From Candidatus Multivoradales bacterium (GTDB lineage Bacteria; Acidobacteriota; Thermoanaerobaculia; Multivoradales; J023), in assembly GCA_965248925.1 (NCBI GenBank), contig CBDFLE010000005.1, forward strand, positions 1,408,001 through 1,472,000: a stretch of DNA of 64,000 bases, read 5' to 3'. Made by a program: the position numbers and the translations under genes. Each line of letters begins with the position of its first letter. The stretch's first letter is position 1. A model generated the notes under the pieces. It did no database searches. It saw only the letters and a program-made list of their open reading frames with translations, and was not told the origin of the DNA. Positions 28,771-42,914 of the stretch are shown here, piece by piece.

Positions 28771-30300
28771 ATGTTGGCACGAATATCTACAGCAACCCCC
28801 TGGGGAGTCGACGCCCGGCCGGTGCAAGTCGAGGTGGACGCCCACAACGGCCTGCCCCAAATGCAGATCGTCGGCCTCCCCGATGCCTCCGTACGCGAGA
28901 GCCGTGAACGCGTGCGATCGGCAATCAAGAATAGCGGCTTCGACCTGCCACCCAGAGCCGTGGTGGTCAACCTGGCTCCGGCCGATCTGCGCAAAGAGGG
29001 CAACCACCTCGATCTGGCGATCGCCCTCGCCTTACTCGCCGCTCTCGGCCAGGTGCCCGAAGAGGCTCTGGCCGGCCGCATGTTCTGCGGCGAGCTGGGC
29101 CTAGATGGCGGCGTGCGCCCAGTGCGCGGCGGCCTGGCTTTGGCCGCTTTAGCCACCCGGCAGCAGCTCCGCGAGTTGCTGCTGCCAGCGGCCAACGCCA
29201 GTGAGGCGGCAGCACTAGGCAGTGTACCGGTGATCCCGACCCGCAGTCTCCGCGAAGTGGTCGACCACCTCACCGGCCGGCAACCCCTACAGCCCGCTAC
29301 CGCCGACGATTTTGGCCAGCACTCCCTGCCCGGCTGCGCCCTCGACTTAGCTGAAGTGCGGGGGCAGCAGGCCGCCAAACGGGCGTTGGAAGTCGCTGCG
29401 GCCGGCGGGCATAATCTGCTTTTTATTGGCCCGCCTGGTTCCGGCAAGACCATGCTCGCCAGGCGCTTACCGGGATTGCTGCCGCCGCTGAGCCTCGAAG
29501 AGTCCATAGCGGTCACCAAGATCCACTCGCTGGTGGCCGAAGAACCCCCTTCACGGCTGGTCGAAGAACGACCCTTCCGCAGCCCCCATCCTGGCACCAG
29601 CACCGCCGGCCTGATCGGTGGCGGTTCCATTCCCCGTCCAGGTGAGGCCAGCCTGGCGCACGCTGGGGTGCTGTTTCTCGACGAGTTGCCCGAATTCCGT
29701 CGGGACAGCTTGGAGGCCCTGCGACAGCCGCTCGAAGAGGGTACCGTCACCGTGGTACGGGCACGAGCGCGGCTTTGCTTTCCGGCTCGCTTCGCTCTCC
29801 TAGCCGCGATGAATCCCTGCAAGTGCGGGCATTTGGGGGACGATCGGCATCACTGCAAATGCTCGCCACAGATGATCGAACGCTATCGCAGTCGGGTCTC
29901 AGGGCCGCTTCTCGACCGCATCGACATGCATGTCGAGGTGCCGGCGGTGAGCCTTGCCGAGTTGCGCAGCGAAGCCACCGAAGGGACTCGGGAAGTAGCG
30001 TGGAGAGTGCGCCAGGCGAGAGAGATCCAGCGCAGTAGATTCGGCTCCCAGACGGACGTGCCGGTCAATGCCTCCCTGGGGAGCGACGGCATCGAGCAGC
30101 ATTGCGTGCTAGCGCCCGATGCCCAGCGCTTGGTCGACACCGCCTTCGACAAGCTCAAGCTGTCGGCACGGGCACTCAGCCGCATCCTCAAGCTATCCCG
30201 CACCATCGCCGACCTCGACAGTTCGGCGGAGATTCGGGCAGCGCATGCCGCCGAGGCCATTCAATACCGCAGCCTGGACCAGCGATCGGAGCGAGGCTGA
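28771..30300 (+). CDS. comM: ComM/YifB Mg-chelatase-like AAA+ helicase
   Basis: IVGLPDASVRESRERV, GPPGSGKT, GEASLAHAGVLFLDE, SGPLLDRID; appears intact. Confidence 0.93.
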   Translation: MLARISTATPWGVDARPVQVEVDAHNGLPQMQIVGLPDASVRESRERVRSAIKNSGFDLPPRAVVVNLAPADLRKEGNHLDLAIALALLAALGQVPEEALAGRMFCGELGLDGGVRPVRGGLALAALATRQQLRELLLPAANASEAAALGSVPVIPTRSLREVVDHLTGRQPLQPATADDFGQHSLPGCALDLAEVRGQQAAKRALEVAAAGGHNLLFIGPPGSGKTMLARRLPGLLPPLSLEESIAVTKIHSLVAEEPPSRLVEERPFRSPHPGTSTAGLIGGGSIPRPGEASLAHAGVLFLDELPEFRRDSLEALRQPLEEGTVTVVRARARLCFPARFALLAAMNPCKCGHLGDDRHHCKCSPQMIERYRSRVSGPLLDRIDMHVEVPAVSLAELRSEATEGTREVAWRVRQAREIQRSRFGSQTDVPVNASLGSDGIEQHCVLAPDAQRLVDTAFDKLKLSARALSRILKLSRTIADLDSSAEIRAAHAAEAIQYRSLDQRSERG

Positions 30301-31265
30301 TGCCACGTTTACCACGCTACTTGCCGCGTCCCGGCTGCTTGGTCGAGATCACCCAGCGGACTCTGCAAGGGCGCTACCTCCTACGACCGAGCCGGCGTCT
30401 CAATCAGCTTCTAATCGGAATTCTTGCCAAAGCCCAGCAAGAAACCGAGCTCGCCGTCCATGCGATCGCCGTCCTCTCAAATCACTTCCACCTACTCGCT
30501 TCACCGGCCACCGTCGAACAGATTGCGCGATTTATGGGACACCTCAAGACCAACATAGCCAAAGAAATAGGTCGTCTCCACGACTGGCCCGGCTCGATGT
30601 TCGACCGGCGCTACACCATGATTCCGGTCAGCGACGAAGAGGAAGCTCAGATCAAGCGCCTCGAGTACCTCCTCTCTCAAGGCTGCAAAGAAGGGCTCGT
30701 GACGTCACCCCTCGAGTGGCCGGGAGCCCACTGCGCAGGAGCGCTCCTGACGGGCTATCCGCTGAGGGGAATCTGGATCGACCGCACTCGGCAATGGGCG
30801 GCGAGCCAGCGCGAGGCCGACACCGGGGAATCCGACTTCGTAACCGACGTCGAGCTAAAGCTCGACAACCTGCCATGTTGGAAGCATCTTGCGCTAGAAG
30901 CCCAGCAGCAACACATCTTGGAGCTCATCGAGAAGATCGAGAGAGATACTGCAAGACTCCATCAAGACCGAGGAACCGAGCCCCTCGGCGCATTCCTCGT
31001 CGGCCAGCAGCAGACACATCGACGCCCCGGCCAGCAACCGACAAACCCACCCCCCTTCTTTCACGTCTATCGGAAGAAAGTCCGGCACGCGATGCGCTTG
31101 GCCTTGGGCGAATTCCTCACTGCATACCGTACGGCCGCAGAGAAACTTCGAAGCCGTGGAGCACCTAGCGGATTTCCTGAAAACTCCTTCCCGCCAAGAC
31201 CAAAATTCGTCACTGCTGTCCCGTTAACTTCGCAGAAAAATAGGCTCAAACCTCCCTGGTCTTGA
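30300..31265 (+). CDS. HUH Y1 transposase, RAYT/TnpA-REP-like; C-terminal tail replaced by IS4 insertion
   Basis: ATG overlaps comM stop (TGATG); EITQRT, VLSNHFHLL (HUH), MFDRRY, RLEYLLSQGCKEGLV..EWPG (candidate catalytic Tyr). Original end FVDTNTPSDSS* lies beyond the IS at 32493-32523. Confidence 0.85.
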   Translation: MPRLPRYLPRPGCLVEITQRTLQGRYLLRPSRRLNQLLIGILAKAQQETELAVHAIAVLSNHFHLLASPATVEQIARFMGHLKTNIAKEIGRLHDWPGSMFDRRYTMIPVSDEEEAQIKRLEYLLSQGCKEGLVTSPLEWPGAHCAGALLTGYPLRGIWIDRTRQWAASQREADTGESDFVTDVELKLDNLPCWKHLALEAQQQHILELIEKIERDTARLHQDRGTEPLGAFLVGQQQTHRRPGQQPTNPPPFFHVYRKKVRHAMRLALGEFLTAYRTAAEKLRSRGAPSGFPENSFPPRPKFVTAVPLTSQKNRLKPPWS

Positions 31266-32483
31266 TAGAATCAGTCATCGCTAAACGGCTGAATCAAAGG
31301 GAGATCTGAGCCTTGGCACATCATAGCACCGTCTTCGCCCAGCTACTGCAACTGATTTCGAGACATGAATTCGAGGCCCTCGCAAAACGCCACCACGCCG
31401 GTCGCCAGTTCCGCACTGCGAGCCGCTGGTCGCAGCTGGTGGCTCTGATGATGGCCCAGCTGTCCGGGCGTTCTAGCTTGCGCGACATCGTTGACAATCT
31501 ACGAGCGCAGCGGCACAAGCTCTACCATCTCGGCTGCCGAGTCCTGTCGCGATCTAACTTGGCACGGATCAACGAAGAGAAGCCCTATCTCCTTTTTGAA
31601 GAGCTATTTGGGAGACTTCTGGGGCATGCTCAGGCAGTGGCGCCCAAGCATACGTTCCGGTTCAAGAACCGCTTGTTCTCGCTTGACGCCTCGGTGATAG
31701 ACCTCTGTCTGTCGATATTCCCATGGGCGAAGTTTCGTACGACCAAGGGAGCGATCAAGCTGCATGTGGGGTTGGATCACGGTGGCTACTTGCCTGCCTT
31801 CGTTGCGATCTCGGATGGAAAAACAGGTGACATCGCGGGCTGCAAGAGCCTGACGCTGCCACGAGGAAGCATCGTAGCTTGTGATCGTGGTTACAACAGC
31901 TACAGCTGGTTTCGTCAGCTGAGCGAGAAGGGTCTTTTCTTTGTGACCCGTCTGAAGCGCGGGGCCAAGTACCGCGTGACCGAACGTCGAAGAGTCAATC
32001 GTTCCAAGGGTTTGATGAGCGACCAAACGATCGAATGGACCGGTGTGAAGGCGTGTCGTGACTGCCCGATGCCTCTGCGGAGAGTAGGCTATCGCGACCC
32101 TGAGACCGGCAAGATCTACTATTTCTTGACGAACCTGTTCCGCCTGTCACCTCAGACCATTGCCGATATCTACCACGAACGTTGGCAAATTGAACTCTTC
32201 TTCAAGTGGATCAAGCAGAATCTGAAGATCAAGACTTTCGTCGGCACCAGCCGCAACGCCGTGCTGACTCAGCTTTGGATCGCCATGTGCGTCTACCTAT
32301 TGCTCGCTTTCATCAAGCACAAGCACCGTCTTTCCAGTAGTTTACGGGAGGCCTTGCGCCTCCTTCAATTGAACCTCTTTGAGCGCCGCGACCTCATGGC
32401 CCTCTTGAAACGAGAGCCGCCGCCGATCCCAGGACTAGACGAAAGACAACTGGTAATCGTCGGAAGTTAACGGGACAGCAGTG
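31211..32483 (+). mobile_element. IS4-family insertion sequence, complete
   Basis: 21-bp perfect terminal IRs CACTGCTGTCCCGTTAACTTC (31211-31231 / 32463-32483); 9-bp target duplication AAAATTCGT (31202-31210, 32484-32492). Confidence 0.95.
31313..32470 (+). CDS. IS4-family DDE transposase
   Basis: SLDASVIDL, IKLH, CDRGY, YHERWQIELFFKWIKQNLKIK. Confidence 0.95.
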   Translation: MAHHSTVFAQLLQLISRHEFEALAKRHHAGRQFRTASRWSQLVALMMAQLSGRSSLRDIVDNLRAQRHKLYHLGCRVLSRSNLARINEEKPYLLFEELFGRLLGHAQAVAPKHTFRFKNRLFSLDASVIDLCLSIFPWAKFRTTKGAIKLHVGLDHGGYLPAFVAISDGKTGDIAGCKSLTLPRGSIVACDRGYNSYSWFRQLSEKGLFFVTRLKRGAKYRVTERRRVNRSKGLMSDQTIEWTGVKACRDCPMPLRRVGYRDPETGKIYYFLTNLFRLSPQTIADIYHERWQIELFFKWIKQNLKIKTFVGTSRNAVLTQLWIAMCVYLLLAFIKHKHRLSSSLREALRLLQLNLFERRDLMALLKREPPPIPGLDERQLVIVGS

Positions 32484-32515
32484 AAAATTCGTTGACACCA
32501 ACACCCCTTCTGACT

Positions 32516-32542
32516 CTTCATAATGTGCCTGGCACCTATTTC
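32516..32542. repeat. REP-like palindromic repeat, copy 1
   Basis: CTTCATAATGTGCCTGGCACCTATTTC; overlaps the original RAYT stop codon. Confidence 0.85.
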
Positions 32543-35387
32543 TGCGTGCGCCGCGGGGCCCTTTCCGCGAGACATCTTGGAGATCGTATTGTAGGTCTCA
32601 TTCGCCAAGTTTGAGTGGTACGATTTGGATCGCTTGAGCTTTCCGCTGATCAGATCTCCGATTTTTCGATTGCCAAACCCACCGGGGCCTACGGGCATCA
32701 TGCCTATTTTGCAAACTCCGGCATCGACACAATCCATGAAGTTTCCGCTCTGTGGTAATCTAAAGGATTCCAGGATCAACGCCGTAAAACTTTTCTTTGT
32801 TCCCTCTGAGGAGGTCCCTGCCGTGACTTGTAAATCGCGATCTGAAGGAATGGATGTGGAATCCGTCGAACTCTCTTGTGAAAACTCACTGATCACATCG
32901 ATAGATGATGAAAAACAGAGCCCTAGCAAACAAGGGTCAATAATAAATGCAAATCCGTCAAGCGGTGTTGCCCCAGAAGGATCATTGAAGAGAAGGGGAC
33001 GATTGTTAACATAAGAAACACGATTCCACGAGCGGGATTGCGGGATGGGAGTACCGTCGGTAGCCGGATCTACACTCAAGAACCGCCCCACCACCGGACT
33101 GCAATGCCGAGCATGCATGTAGTCAAGCTCACTCTTCGCCCCCACGCCGTTCTTGTCTCGCTCATGCCCGGTAAACTTCAGCTGAAACTCATCCGAGCTA
33201 GCACTGGTTGCCTCCTGCCCAAACGGATAGTAACTGTGCTGCGCCACTTGGGTGCCATTCTTCGTCACCTGCCGTGGTGTACCGAGATGATCTAGATGAA
33301 AGCTGTAAGTCTCTTCGACACCACTGGCGTCCGGGTCTACCGAGGCTAGGAGCTGTCCACCCCGGTAGACGTAGTCCCGCTCCCACTCGAAGCTTTCGCC
33401 CCGCGGATGGGTGAAGACCCGCAGCACCTCGTTGCCGAGCCCGCGCAAGGTCCAGGTCTCGCTGGCCGGGCTGCTGACGCAGCTGCTGCCGGCGGCGCTG
33501 AAGCAGCTGAAGGTGACGATGCGCTCGTCGTCAGCGTTGTAGATGTACACGCTCGCCTGGTCGGTGTTGCTTTGCAGGTGCTTCATCATGTTGGCGGCGT
33601 CGTAGGTGTACTGGTAGATCTCCGAGCTACTGTAACGCACGCGGGTCAGGTTGCCGCCAGCGTCGTACACCGTGCCGCTGAGGCCGAGGCGGTTGGTGCT
33701 GCTGCTCGGGCTCATGGTCTGGCTGGCGCCGTGGGTGACCATCTGGGTAAGGTTGCCGAAGTTGTCATAGCTCGCGGTCTGTAGGCGGTCGTTGCTGCCG
33801 ACTTTTACCTCGCCGCTGACCAGGCGCTGGAATCGGTCATAGCGATATTGCAAGGAGCCGATGCGGTGGATATTTCCGGCTCCGTCGTAGTCGAAGGTGC
33901 CGGTGTCCCAGCCGGCGTTGGTAGAGATGCGCTCGGGCCGGGCGAGGCCGGAGGGATCGACCTGGCGGGTCTCGGTGATGCCGCTCTGGTGGCTGATCTG
34001 GGTCAGCATGCCGCCGCTCTGGTAGCTGAGGCTGGAGGCGAAACCGGGGACCGCGGTGAGGAAGCCCTTGTCGTAGGCGAAGCTCACCTGCCGCGGTGGG
34101 CTGACCTGATCGCAGCTGTCGTTGCTGTGCAGGCAGTCAGGATAGTCGAGGGTCGCGAGGTTGCCTTGCAGATCGAAGGTGAAGCCGGCCTGGAAGGCGT
34201 AGTGGCCGACGCCGAGCTGATAGCGAGTCTGGCGCTCGGACATCCGGCCGCCACGACCCGCGTAGACGAAGCTCTCGGAGACCCGGACATCGAGGAAGCC
34301 GGGATTGGCGTTCAGCGGATTCACCAGATCCACCCAATTGTGGCGGGTGGTCTGCACCAGCTTGCCGGCCCGCTTGTCGAGACCTACGTTCTGGCGGCCG
34401 TAGCGGAACTCCTTCAGCCGGCGTGGGTTGCCCCCGTTGTTCTCGTCGACGCGGATCAAGCGAGCCGCTGGATCATAGAAATAGTCGAGGTCAAATTCGG
34501 TGGAGCCACCGATGCGTTTGCTCAAAACGCTGCCACGAGCATCATAGGAATAGGTCGTGGCGCCGTTGCCCACTGGGCCGACTTCGGGATGGGTCTCGGA
34601 GGTCAGGAAGCTGCGACCGTCATAGTTGAAGAAGCGTTGCTGGCCACAGGTCGATCCAGTCCGATTCTGGCAAACGTGGGTGAGCCGCGAGCCGGCGTCG
34701 TAGGCGTAGCGAGTCAGCAAGCCGCCCGCGTTGCAGCTGCCATTCCAGGCCGCCGATCTGCCTTCACAAACCTCGAACAATCGGCCCTGGCCATCGGAGA
34801 TCTCGGTGTTGTAGGTGTCTTCTTGCACTCCGGAGGCGAGCATCACTTTGAACCGCCGCGTCTTGGTGCGTTCGCCCTCGTAGCTGAGGAATGTGGCCGG
34901 CTGGCTTGGTGGGGTGATCCTGCCGGGGCGGCCGAAGTTGTCGTACTGCTCGTACTTGGTGACGCGGCTGTCGGAAGTGGCGTTAAGGGTCCACACCGAT
35001 TCCGCGGTCTTCCAGGCCCGCGGGTTGAAGCTCATGTGGCGGTACCACCTCACCCCGCCGGGCAACTGTACCTGCTCTTTGACCCGGCGGCCGAGGCCGT
35101 CGAAAGTGTGCTGGCGGTAGGCCAGCAGGCCGGAGCCCGAGCAAGCGGCGGTGGTGACGCATTGCTCTTCGGTCAGTAGCGGCACCAGGTTGAAGTTGCT
35201 CTGGGTGGCCAGCCGGTAGGTGTAGCGGCGCACTGCTTCGCTCTCGGGAAACTCATGGGTCAATCGGCCCTGCCGGTCATAGAGGAAGTCGATCTTGACC
35301 CCGGCGCTGTCTCGGCTGCGTTTGACCAGGCCGGTGTTCTTGTCGAGATCGTAGTCGGCCAGTTTGAGCAGCACCTCGCTGGTGGCG
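32543..35387 (-). pseudogene. Rhs/YD-repeat polymorphic toxin fragment lacking N-terminus and toxin end
   Basis: YD repeats; core FHLDHLGTPRQ, YYPFG, KFTGHERD, GRFLSVDP, NDPSG; AT-richer C-terminal tip. Frame runs into the repeat at both ends; no clear RBS or immunity gene. Confidence 0.85.
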
Positions 35388-35532
35388 CCGCTTCATAAGG
35401 TGCCTGGCACCTATTTCCGTCGCACCTATTTCCGCTTCATAAGGTGCCTGGCACCTATTTCCGGCACCTATTTCCGTCGGCAAGCAGCTAAGCAAGCAGC
35501 CCGCTTCATAAGGTGCCTGGCACCTATTTCCG
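35388..35532. repeat. Cluster of three full and two half copies of the REP-like repeat
   Basis: CCGCTTCATAAGGTGCCTGGCACCTATTTCCG at 35388, 35432, 35501; half copies GCACCTATTTCCG at 35422 and 35464. Confidence 0.92.
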
Positions 35533-41139: not shown

Positions 41140-41680
41140 GCACCTCGGTACCGACGCGTCGTGTTCCTACCGCTGCCAAGACAGGCCAGCTTCCCGGCCG
41201 TCGCCGGTTGCGAAGACCCGCCGCAAGTACCCCGCACGGACCAGCCCTCAAGACCCCTCCGGCGGCCAATTGTAAGAACGCCTTCCGCGGGATAGGATCT
41301 CTTCACAGAGTTAGTTTTCTGGTTCATCCGGGAAATGAGGAGGTGCTGGTCTCGCCGGACTGGTCATTCCAGTCCAGGCAGGCCCGCTGAGGTTTGGCGA
41401 GCCCCGCCGCTCGCTGAGTGTGGCGCCATCGGCTGACCGCCTCAAGGGTACGCTTCGCCGGCTCCTTCCCTCCTGCCGCCCCTGACCCGGCCAGCCGCTG
41501 TCGCTCCTGTAGGCCTGTAGGCGACGGGGAAAAGGCGATCTCGACGCAATCAAGCTGGTCTGGGCACCGAATCGAGCTGTTCTGTGAGCAGAGGACTAGG
41601 GGGGACTTGAGAGTTGTCGCCATGTCGATCATCCTGGTCGTATCTCCGCGTCATATGTGCCTTCTATGAGTCGGACGGTT

Positions 41681-41904
41681 CAAGTCAAGCAGAATGGTGG
41701 ATTCTGGTCGATGATTTCTCGCTGGTGACTGGGTCTGATCGGACGAACTTCTATTCGCACTCTTTGAGGCCTGATCGGAGGCCGGTGCATTACGAGCTTT
41801 GCGTCTAGAGACCCAAAGAGGGCGCTCCCATCTGGCACACGGAGTCCAAGCTCCAAGACAAACGTGGCCGTTCTAAGTCTTTTTTTTCTGTGAGTTTGTG
41901 GTGT
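41681..41904 (-). ncRNA. Candidate bridge RNA / seekRNA of the IS1111-type element
   Basis: Non-coding region downstream of the transposase with segments matching target+core (GTGCCAG) and donor junction (ATAGAAG, TCATC) in the expected order. Boundaries approximate. Confidence 0.65.
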
Positions 41905-42613
41905 TCAAACAGTCTGTGGAAAAGCGCGGAAGATGTCGCCAGAGATCCAGATCCGGTGGAGCACAACGGAGATCTTTCAGCCGAACCATCAGCTCATCAT
42001 CCTCGGAGAGCGACTCCAGCTGAGCACTCAGCTCCGCGATCTGCTGGTTCAGCTGAACGATCATCTCCAGCAGAGGATCCAGCACCAGGCGAAGCTCGTC
42101 CTCGACCTTCAGGCGGACGAAGCGGTCAACGAAGCGCCGGGTCTCACAACGCGACATCCGGTAGCCATGGGAGCGCAGCGTCCCTCGGATCGAGTTGATC
42201 AGTCTGGTGCGATTTCTCACCAGCTCGGTGCGAACCCGCAGGCGCGTCCGCAGAAGCTGCGCTGCTTTGCTACGCTGATACACGCTACCCAGCAACACAC
42301 CGTCGAAGCGACTCAGCCGAGCCAAGATCTCCGCATCGATCGTGTCGCTCTTCAGCGTGCTCTCAGCGATCAAACGCACCCACCGCGGGTTGACCACGAT
42401 GACCTCATGGCCCCAGCTCTTCAAGAGCCGATACAACCAGGGAGTCACAGTGCCACACTCCATCACTAGCCGAGAGCGCTCCCGCTTGGCGAAGAATCGC
42501 CGCAGCGAAGTCTCCGTGGTTGCGACTTGCCGGCGCTCCAGGACACGACCTCGGGAGGAAAGAACGTAGATCTCGCTGTACTTTGTGTGAGCGTCGATGC
42601 CAACAGGGTCCAT
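41905..42613 (-). pseudogene. IS110 transposase, internally deleted and frameshifted
   Basis: DEDD RuvC part (VGIDAH, VMECG, VNP, KSDTIDAEILA). After LMVRLK a different frame gives the family C-terminus KISVVLHRIWISGDIFRAFPQTV*; the Tnp20 region between is missing. Confidence 0.85.
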
Positions 42614-42914
42614 GGTCGGTTTCCCTTCGGGCACCACTGCGCCCTGGGGGGTTTCTCCCATGCAGGATGTCACTGATAGGAGACCGGCCGACTCATCTCA
42701 TCTGGCACCTATTTCTGGCAAGAGAGAACCCCGGAAATGCAGACAGCTATCTAGCTCACCAACTCTACAACCGCGATCTCGAACAAAGAGCGCTAAGGGG
42801 AGATCTAGCCCTTGACGGGCTACCCGCTAATGTGAATCAACTCTTTGGGCAAATCCCCATACTCAGCAGCCAAATGCTCCTGTAAGATCACGGCTTCTGA
42901 GAAGAGACGACGCT

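Follow-up and report, generated by a model that had tools for sequence, protein, structure and literature searches.

A probable decayed IS1111-group insertion sequence at the axis of a short palindromic repeat in an Acidobacteriota genome

The 64,000-nt stretch of DNA analysed here (the window) belongs to an assembly of Candidatus Multivoradales bacterium, an Acidobacteriota (GCA_965248925.1; 7.98 Mb in 6 contigs, 96.9% complete), and occupies C5:1408001-1472000 of this source assembly, labelled G000. Between positions 41651 and 42717 it holds a short palindromic repeat interrupted by an insertion sequence (IS) which, judged from its sequence, is an incomplete remnant of a member of the IS1111 group of the IS110 family. 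Its truncated transposase gene, its two ends, a truncated gene for a putative bridge (seek) RNA and the two repeat halves on either side are arranged as follows.

41651..41662, plus strand: left repeat half, TCATATGTGC and the core CT at 41661-41662; 12 nt
41663..42701, minus strand: IS1111-group (IS110 family) remnant, 1039 bp, plus one copy of the CT core
41663..41678, minus strand: IS right end in transposase orientation, with the subterminal inverted repeat CCGTCCGACTCAT at 41666-41678 and then a 3-nt extension, AGA, at 41663-41665
41733..41881, minus strand: truncated gene of the putative bridge/seek RNA, in the 3' non-coding region; 89.1 bits with covariance model R1, against 136.8 for copy D
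41748-41756, minus strand: donor loop, candidate left donor guide GAATAGAAG; inner hairpin at 41768-41783
41820-41828, minus strand: target loop, 3' strand of the basal stem; candidate left target guide GTGCCAG followed by ATGGGAG at 41825-41838
41841-41854, minus strand: target loop, inner hairpin; remnant TGTCT of the candidate right target guide within 41853-41862
41873..42613, minus strand: truncated transposase coding sequence, 246 aa and stop, with the DEDD/RuvC-like domain and coiled coil kept
42684..42701, minus strand: IS left end in transposase orientation, with a 5-nt extension, ATGAG, at 42697-42701 and then the subterminal inverted repeat ATGAGTCGGCCGG at 42684-42696
42702..42717, plus strand: right repeat half, core CT at 42702-42703 and GGCACCTATTTCTG; 16 nt

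The minus-strand transposase open reading frame (ORF) is the only sizeable one with a family match. Read from a GTG it spans 42673..41873 (266 aa), the ATG at 42613 being the likelier start, and residues 24-168 of the 266-aa form match a single family, the N-terminal DEDD, RuvC-like domain PF01548 (79.6 bits, cut-off 29). The C-terminal domain PF02371, which carries the catalytic serine motif GL-P----S(t)G, has no match in the window transposase, and the NCBIfam model NF033542 ('IS110 family RNA-guided transposase') gives 119.8 bits against a cut-off of 140, covering positions 2-223 of 343. The full-length 337-aa transposase of a related element in G056, a genome of the same order, reaches 241.3 bits with that model; the window protein is 57% identical to residues 4-224 of this protein, called P0001, and the homology stops near residue 223. 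P0001 gives a full-length alignment with the transposase of IS4321 from plasmid R751 (residues 4-317, 90.1 bits, 28% identity), in which its GLRPSLRSSG is set against GLVPRQYSTG, and no more than about 42 bits with two IS110-group proteins in PDB, IS621 and ISCro4 (IS621 41.8; structures 8WT6 and others). The non-coding region 3' of the window gene is 210 nt long, from the stop at 41873 to the end at 41663, despite a 61-nt deletion, and that 5' of the ATG is 88 nt; the relative in G056 has about 257 nt downstream and 90 nt upstream. The initial annotation of this DNA had called the element IS1111-type, and the subterminal inverted repeats with IS4321 extensions, the DEDD domain and the long downstream non-coding region all bear this out.

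On the plus strand, the junctions in the window read ...cgTCATATGTGCCT|TCTATGAGTCGGACGG...CCGGCCGACTCATCTCAT|CTGGCACCTATTTCTGgc. In transposase orientation, to which left and right flanks refer below, the half at 41651..41662 is the right target, AG-GCACATATGA, and the half at 42702..42717 the left target, ...GAAATAGGTGCC-AG. Full-length relatives of the element measure 1360-1413 bp. The subterminal inverted repeat, ATGAGTCGG/CCGACTCAT, is perfect over 9 positions and, in its extended form, agrees at 12 of 13; the distance to the end is 3 nt on one side and 5 nt on the other, or 7 counting the CT, and the CT core alone is duplicated at the target, so that the site-specific insertion without duplication other than the core dinucleotide is a feature present here. 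The repeat copies with which the flanks were compared lie in the same window.

32516..32544, plus strand: intact 'long form' reference repeat, cTTCATAATGTGCCTGGCACCTATTTCTG (TTCATAATGTGCCTGGCACCTATTTCTG)
35391..35532, plus strand: array of three intact repeats with extra lone right halves (GCACCTATTTCCG)

Rejoined by eye, the two flanks equal the intact copy at 32516-32544 minus one A. Because of this 1-nt indel, an ungapped search with the rejoined flanks found zero matches at up to three mismatches; a 20-mer taken from the intact repeat found four copies. The right half shares its final TTTCTG with the 32516 variant; TTTCCG stands there in the three copies at 35400-35532. What had been proposed for the site is therefore largely upheld by the junctions: insertion at the central CT of the palindromic repeat (the halves are in register around the CT, and the guides described below match both flanks), the 32516 variant as the closest copy, inverted repeats 3 and 7 nt from the ends, and nothing duplicated beyond the CT. 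The interval 41651..42717 originally assigned to the element fits the whole interrupted repeat, since it includes both halves; the element proper is 41663-42701.

In IS1111 elements, according to two studies, a long non-coding region follows the gene, and the seekRNAs or bridge RNAs encoded by these elements hold the complement of the top strand 5' of the complement of the bottom strand, with a variable target loop and a constant donor loop (PMC11187229; PMC11208160). The 3' non-coding region of the window element is judged, by its sequence and by covariation among relatives, to encode such an RNA. When 300 genomes of the order were searched with P0001, 48 proved to have relatives (E up to 1e-40), and flanks and non-coding regions were taken from 14 lineages; the structure count used alignment A3, which is alignment A2 minus G053 and G141, two lineages with long target-loop hairpin insertions that were both kept in the flank tests. 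A basal stem that contains a bulged A closes the first, or target, loop; its sequence is UUCGAUG(A)CUCC/GGAGCAUCGAA in G056 and, in copy D of this genome, GGGUG(A)CUCC/GGAGCGCCC. The RNAalifold consensus for the 14 lineages contains compensatory changes in this stem (pair 20/93: CG 7, GC 3, AU 2; pair 22/91: GC 8, AU 5; pair 23/90: UA 7, CG 3, UG 2), which single-sequence folds recover in 11 of 12 lineages. Within the target loop, compensatory variants of an inner hairpin can be read from the sequences (GGAG/CUCC, GGUG/CACC, GAAG/CUUC). The second, or donor, loop is nearly invariant over the 14 lineages and has a hairpin with compensatory changes of its own (GGUUC/GAACC, GGUCC/GGACC, GGCCU/AGGCC); its 3' strand, GAAUAGAAG, matches the right end and core (CATAGA-AG), with GAATAGAAG and CATAGAAG agreeing at 7 of 8 positions, and its other strand, read by eye, matches the left end weakly. 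The AUGGGAG that follows the left target guide resembles the left end, ATGAGAT, and is probably a handshake segment. In the window copy, a 61-nt deletion beside 41862/41863, defined by comparison with copy D, has taken away part of the right guide together with the basal stem's 5' strand. Run over the whole genome, model R1 gives 136.8 bits for D, which has the complete RNA, and 89.1 bits for the window copy; a third match (16.4 bits, E 0.19) was taken as noise.

The two strands of the target loop correspond to the two flanks of the insertion. The 3' strand is a same-sense copy of left flank and core, here called the left target guide: GUGCCAG pairs with a flank GTGCCAG, and GUGACAG with GTGACAG in two lineages (the main lineage of G056, and G103). 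The 5' strand, the right target guide, is complementary to core and right flank, as in AAGUAUCCU against AGGATACTT and GAAAAGGGU against ACCCTTTTC (both 9 of 9) or UAAGUGGGU against ACCCACTTG (8 of 9), the guides following each other with the top-strand complement 5' of the bottom-strand complement. Right guides are complementary to the right flanks of their own lineage at a mean of 6.96 of 9 positions, against 5.38 of 9 for the flanks of other lineages, and at least 8 of 9 positions match in 10 of the 27 own pairs, compared with 6 of the 351 cross pairs. In G056, 14 loci carry a transposase 100% identical to P0001; their left flank is GGTGACAG in every case, and the right flank is AGGAT(A/G)C in all 13 that keep both ends. 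The uninterrupted 13-mer, GGTGACAGGMTAC, occurs 19 times in G056, 18 times in G103 and 0 times in controls, often in inverted pairs, the pairs of this related target in the two genomes lying about 45-90 nt apart. Compared in this way, guides and flanks appear to change together in 14 related lineages. In the genome analysed here, the left guide GUGCCAG is an exact fit to the repeat.

The same observations bear on the explanation that the arrangement arose by chance or rearrangement, with an IS fragment coming to lie between two lone half sites and no targeted insertion. Lone half sites do occur in the repeat arrays, and the neighbourhood is a patchwork in which a truncated end of an ISL3-family IS abuts the left half. 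The two halves are, however, in register around a single CT and together make up one known repeat variant, the element's own guides match them, and the same geometry recurs in 13 of 13 two-ended copies in G056; an accidental origin is extremely improbable. Nor can the association between repeat and element be put down to chance, because the 11-nt repeat core occurs 70 times in the genome against 3 for its control and the RNA of the element matches both flanks.

In several related lineages, G056b (L039, L040), G104 (L055), G118 (L084, L086) and G267 (L089, L090), the right guide reads a core AC (...GGGU) and the left guide AG, and the right flanks in these lineages begin with AC or AG; by this reading of the guides, the second core base seems unfixed in this clade. 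Tandem duplicated left halves adjoin related IS copies in G104 and G118.

A BLAST search of the assembly with the region found four pieces, A to D, truncated at four different places. Copy A is the window copy. Copy B (C5:339283-339848; 92.8% identity with A) keeps both ends but lacks about 485 bp in its interior, copy C (C6:1805355-1805609; 88.2%) has only the 5' end of the transposase gene and the left end, and copy D (C6:3823978-3824180, to about 3823900; 95.1%) only the 3' non-coding region and the right end. The sole match to PF02371 in the genome falls in an unrelated IS110-family element (C6:3896611-3897483), whose transposase frame has one internal TAG. The assembly thus holds no intact copy, all four pieces being defective, and their divergence of 5-12% indicates old insertions.

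The left flanks are CAGAAATAGGTGCCAG in A, CGGAAATAGGTGCCAG in B and TTTACAGAGGTGCCAG in C. The first two are halves of the repeat's CTATTTC variant and the third is half of its CTCTGTA variant, which occurs intact at C6:3713974 and at C6:3714038; all three halves end in AGGTGCCAG. On the right side, the flank of A, AGGCACATATGA, is a repeat half as well. The initial annotation had pointed to the flanks of other copies as the place where a link with the repeat would show or fail; they do not refute the link, four of the six flanks available from the four copies being clear repeat halves, one doubtful and one unrelated. The right flank of copy B, given as AGACTCCCT, agrees with the guide at 7 of 9 positions, and this insertion beside a lone half site therefore looks guide-directed too.

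A second explanation is that the half repeats belong to the element, the dispersed repeats being solo ends or scars of excision. According to Siddiquee et al. (PMC11187229), target bases are often wrongly placed inside the ends of IS110 and IS1111 elements in databases, and three copies here as well as many relatives have an unvarying AGGTGCCAG beside the left end. But the flanks of A, B and C diverge beyond 9-15 nt, following different repeat variants; the halves are contiguous, with no IS sequence, at 70 places in the genome; G001, a genome of the same family, has 262 copies of the core and no transposase of the P0001 clade at E up to 1e-40; and the RNA holds separate segments matching the flanks and the ends. 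This explanation is largely refuted, and we consider it very improbable.

What is very probable is that the window holds the decayed remnant of an RNA-guided IS of the IS1111 group, inserted at a repeat that its guides match. The anatomy, the homology, the guide-flank matches and the covariation are read directly from the DNA; for RNA production and recombination chemistry, the following scheme borrows the published mechanism of the family. An intact element of about 1.36-1.41 kb would comprise a gene for a 337-aa DEDD/Ser recombinase and then a non-coding region of about 260 nt with the bridge (seek) RNA. It would be excised as a circle joined right end-AG-left end (RE-AG-LE), and in the complex of recombinase and RNA the target-binding loop would read both target strands while the donor loop holds the element ends. 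The element would then be inserted at the axis of GTGCC-AG-GCAC by strand exchange at the AG core, which is CT on the plus strand, and the core would be left on both sides. The pre-insertion site would have been an intact repeat, TCATA(A)TGTGCCTGGCACCTATTTCTG, flanked by a spermidine-synthase-like gene and one for an extracytoplasmic function (ECF) sigma factor, and the C-terminal catalytic domain and 61 nt of the RNA would have been lost after insertion. With both of these gone and no intact copy to supply them, copy A is immobile.

Several results weigh against this interpretation. The own pairs in the flank test are not independent, 6 of the 27 being G056 flanks that share one guide, and G123 and G141 reach only 5 of 9 with their own flanks. 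In the genome analysed here, the right guide of the complete copy D, AGAGUGUCU, forms only five Watson-Crick pairs and one G-U pair in nine positions with the repeat, AGGCACATA; the six are contiguous from the core, and AGACAC would be a better fit. The genome has 7 copies of GTGCCAGACAC, in which the left target is joined to AGACAC, and 6 of the reversed control; six of the seven read GTGCCAGACACTT, and none is occupied. The right flank of copy D, AGACATTGCGAA, resembles the CGCATAATGTGCCT variant only after two small deletions, and that of copy B, AGACTCCCTCAT, has no relation to the repeat. As to the RNA, RNAalifold did not recover the inner target-loop hairpin, the alignment being inconsistent there, and Rfam 15 has no family at E up to 1 for the RNA of the window copy or of the complete copy D. 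Finally, the search for an empty site proposed in the initial annotation was carried out with the left flank, 41140-41662, which matched none of 23 other genomes of the family (no genome of the same genus among them); the flank yielded an ISL3 fragment instead.

It might also be supposed that the fragment has been retained for some purpose of the host, for example as a truncated RuvC-like protein with a regulatory RNA. The 246-codon frame is indeed still open with the whole DEDD domain, and the element lies some 210 nt upstream of the gene for the ECF sigma factor. Against this, the four pieces are cut at four different places and are 5-12% divergent, the basal stem of the RNA has lost a strand, the ORF ends in read-through outside the homology, and conservation of the locus was not found in the 23 family genomes; retention by the host is highly unlikely.

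The repeat is far more widespread than the element. Its core, the 11-mer GTGCCTGGCAC, occurs 70 times in the 7.98 Mb, with 43 copies forward and 27 reverse; the reversed control occurs 3 times. An 18-mer has 37 matches in the genome at up to two mismatches. The copies lie mostly in direct-orientation arrays with array-specific arm sequences and with lone left or right halves, unlike the pairs of classical repetitive extragenic palindromic (REP) sequences. Among 150 other genomes searched in the order (the unpublished G139, not enriched, included), the 11-mer is enriched in 13, from five families, enrichment meaning 18 or more copies and a minimum of 5 times the control. Exact conservation of the core across genera and families, with arms that differ, suggests that a conserved protein recognises it. 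The arms of the palindrome measure only 5-7 bp, with predicted DNA hairpins of -2.4 and -6.7 kcal/mol (z-scores -0.43 and -1.44); a structural claim for the target hairpin was dropped, its strength being indistinguishable from that of shuffled sequence. Abundance and persistence of the repeat, asserted on first inspection, are thus borne out by its 70 core copies and its enrichment over five families.

Further arrays in G000 lie at C5:1397781-1397970, C6:765089-765244, C6:1089097-1090086, C6:1206410-1206665 and C6:2177223-2177498, and some arrays contain lone halves in tandem, left ones such as CGATAATGTGCC or right ones such as GGCACCTTTTCCGCC, a 'half-site stutter'. Arrays in G001 have the form CCGCAG-GTGCCTGGCAC-C with variable spacers of about 15-45 nt (L114-L117, e.g. 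C28:107636-107874 and C17:61116-61372), and one of them precedes a Y1-like gene (C3:178401-179318) by about 230 nt. In the sigma-54 promoter consensus, 10 nt separate the GG and GC elements. A sigma-54 reading of CTGGCAC...TTGC, present in some arrays, was rejected by eye, its GG-GC gap being 8 nt.

In the window, the long form of the repeat closes a 1.45-kb module (29818-31210 and 32484-32543) that combines a 3' fragment of comM with a gene resembling Y1 transposases. This gene, at 30303-31265, matches PF01797 with 30.6 bits (cut-off 23) and gives 45.1 bits with NF047646 ('REP-associated tyrosine transposase', RAYT), below the cut-off of 80. In the five loci of close paralogs that retain the 3' end of the gene, the core lies 5-42 nt downstream; in the window copy it lies 1263 nt downstream, because a 1274-bp IS4-like element is inserted between gene and core. 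The core was absent within 37 kb of the 13 distant Y1 paralogs, and no repeat copy was seen on the 5' side of the Y1-like gene. The repeat may accordingly be REP-like, tied to a Y1 transposase, and itself mobile or selfish DNA rather than a functional site of the host.

The module, made up of the last ~480 nt of a comM/Mg-chelatase-like gene, a Y1-like gene of about 310 aa and then the repeat, is present in three full copies plus fragments, the other full ones lying at G000 C5:708648-710091 and C6:3632691-3634134. The genome has about 19 Y1-like loci, and the repeat is carried by this paralog group only. The IS4-like element (31210-32483, 1274 bp) encodes a 385-aa transposase with DUF4372 and DDE_Tnp_1, is inserted with a 9-bp overlap that resembles a target duplication, and has at least 14 near-identical copies in the genome.

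These findings also bear on what the insertion says about the repeat. IS110 and IS1111 elements are described as using multi-copy extragenic repeats as targets (PMC1525189; PMC11208160), and REPs have been defined as repeated, palindromic, extragenic sequences of 21-65 nt (PMC1525189). The initial annotation had taken the existence of a dedicated parasite as support for a functional site. An IS1111 element targeting the repeat is indeed what the locus holds, but as a parasite it is extinct in this assembly, represented by four defective pieces, and the step from targeting to function fails, as such elements target multi-copy repeats whatever the repeats do. Because the IS110 family is, according to PMC1525189, the commonest one in REPs, targeting cannot tell a repeat with a host function from a selfish one, and we caution that it is no evidence for the former. 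The repeat is the more open question of the two, an exact 11-mer palindrome found over five families, in arrays and tied to a Y1 gene.

A broader proposal would have the IS1111 clade and the short-palindrome family co-diversify over this acidobacterial order, the left guide staying fixed on GGTG(C/A)CAG and the right guide tracking the local repeat variant, with the direct-orientation arrays and their tandem lone halves arising as by-products of the bridge recombinase acting at the core or of the Y1 (RAYT-like) enzyme. We regard this as a tentative and rather unlikely extension; if it were true, a guide-RNA element would be parasitising the hairpin of another mobile element and would have helped to shape the repeat arrays.

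Targeted insertion of an RNA-guided IS in a palindromic repeat is an ordinary kind of event, already understood, and the window element shares most of its features with known systems. The IS1111 elements ISEc11, ISPa11 and ISKpn4 (PMC11187229) and IS4321/IS5075 likewise have subterminal inverted repeats, short terminal extensions and no duplication beyond the core, a transposase of 330-350 aa with GL-P----S(t)G (present here in the intact relatives), and target guides in the IS1111 order. IS4321 from R751 begins ATGAG-ATGGTCACTCC and ends GGAGTGACCAT-AGA, and the window element begins ATGAG-ATGAGTCGG and ends CCGACTCAT-AGA; it differs from IS4321 in that the protein of its clade (P0001) is only 28% identical and the window copy is non-functional. 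Its target, a short palindrome in an Acidobacteriota lineage, is unlike those known for IS1111 (inverted repeats of the Tn21 type, pseudomonad REPs, attC). IS621, as described by Durrant et al. (2024; PMC11208160), has target and donor loops, guides that include the core CT and a multi-copy REP target, as here; unlike the window element it belongs to the IS110 group, with the RNA upstream of the gene, the guide order reversed and very short subterminal repeats. ISPpu9 and ISPpu10 of P. putida are, by published accounts, IS110-family elements whose copies all lie in one REP sequence (PMC12288879; 10.64898/2026.03.19.712850; PMC1525189), ISPpu9 having a small RNA gene downstream of the transposase as here. 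The window element differs in being inserted at the axis of a palindrome whose arms are very short (5-7 bp) and whose hairpin is predicted to be weak. For ISPpu10, a target stem-loop has been proposed as a second layer of specificity.

The present case documents, in a poorly studied phylum, a bridge/seek RNA that can be read directly against its repeat target, and its 14 natural lineages, with a varying target loop and a fixed donor loop, amount to data on natural 'reprogramming' that should aid the annotation of elements missed by Rfam 15. To our knowledge, such elements have been little described in Acidobacteriota.

The surroundings of the IS1111 remnant are a patchwork of IS debris, in which one further fragment adjoins the interrupted repeat.

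41321..41647, plus strand: left-end fragment of an ISL3-family IS, 77% identical to full copies; it stops 4 nt before the left repeat half

Full copies of the ISL3 element lie at G000 C5:301782, C5:1285525 and C5:1749756, that at C5:2114198 being split by a 1.5-kb insertion, and they run on into an ORF with DDE_Tnp_ISL3 (231 bits). Elsewhere in the window, a 979-aa ORF fragment on the minus strand (32435-35374), RHS/YD-repeat-like by the look of its repeat-rich translation, has the repeat at both ends: the reading frame takes in the copy at 32516-32544, and a further three are found immediately upstream of the start. Beside this ORF is a 157-nt sequence that recurs at C5:702410-702566.

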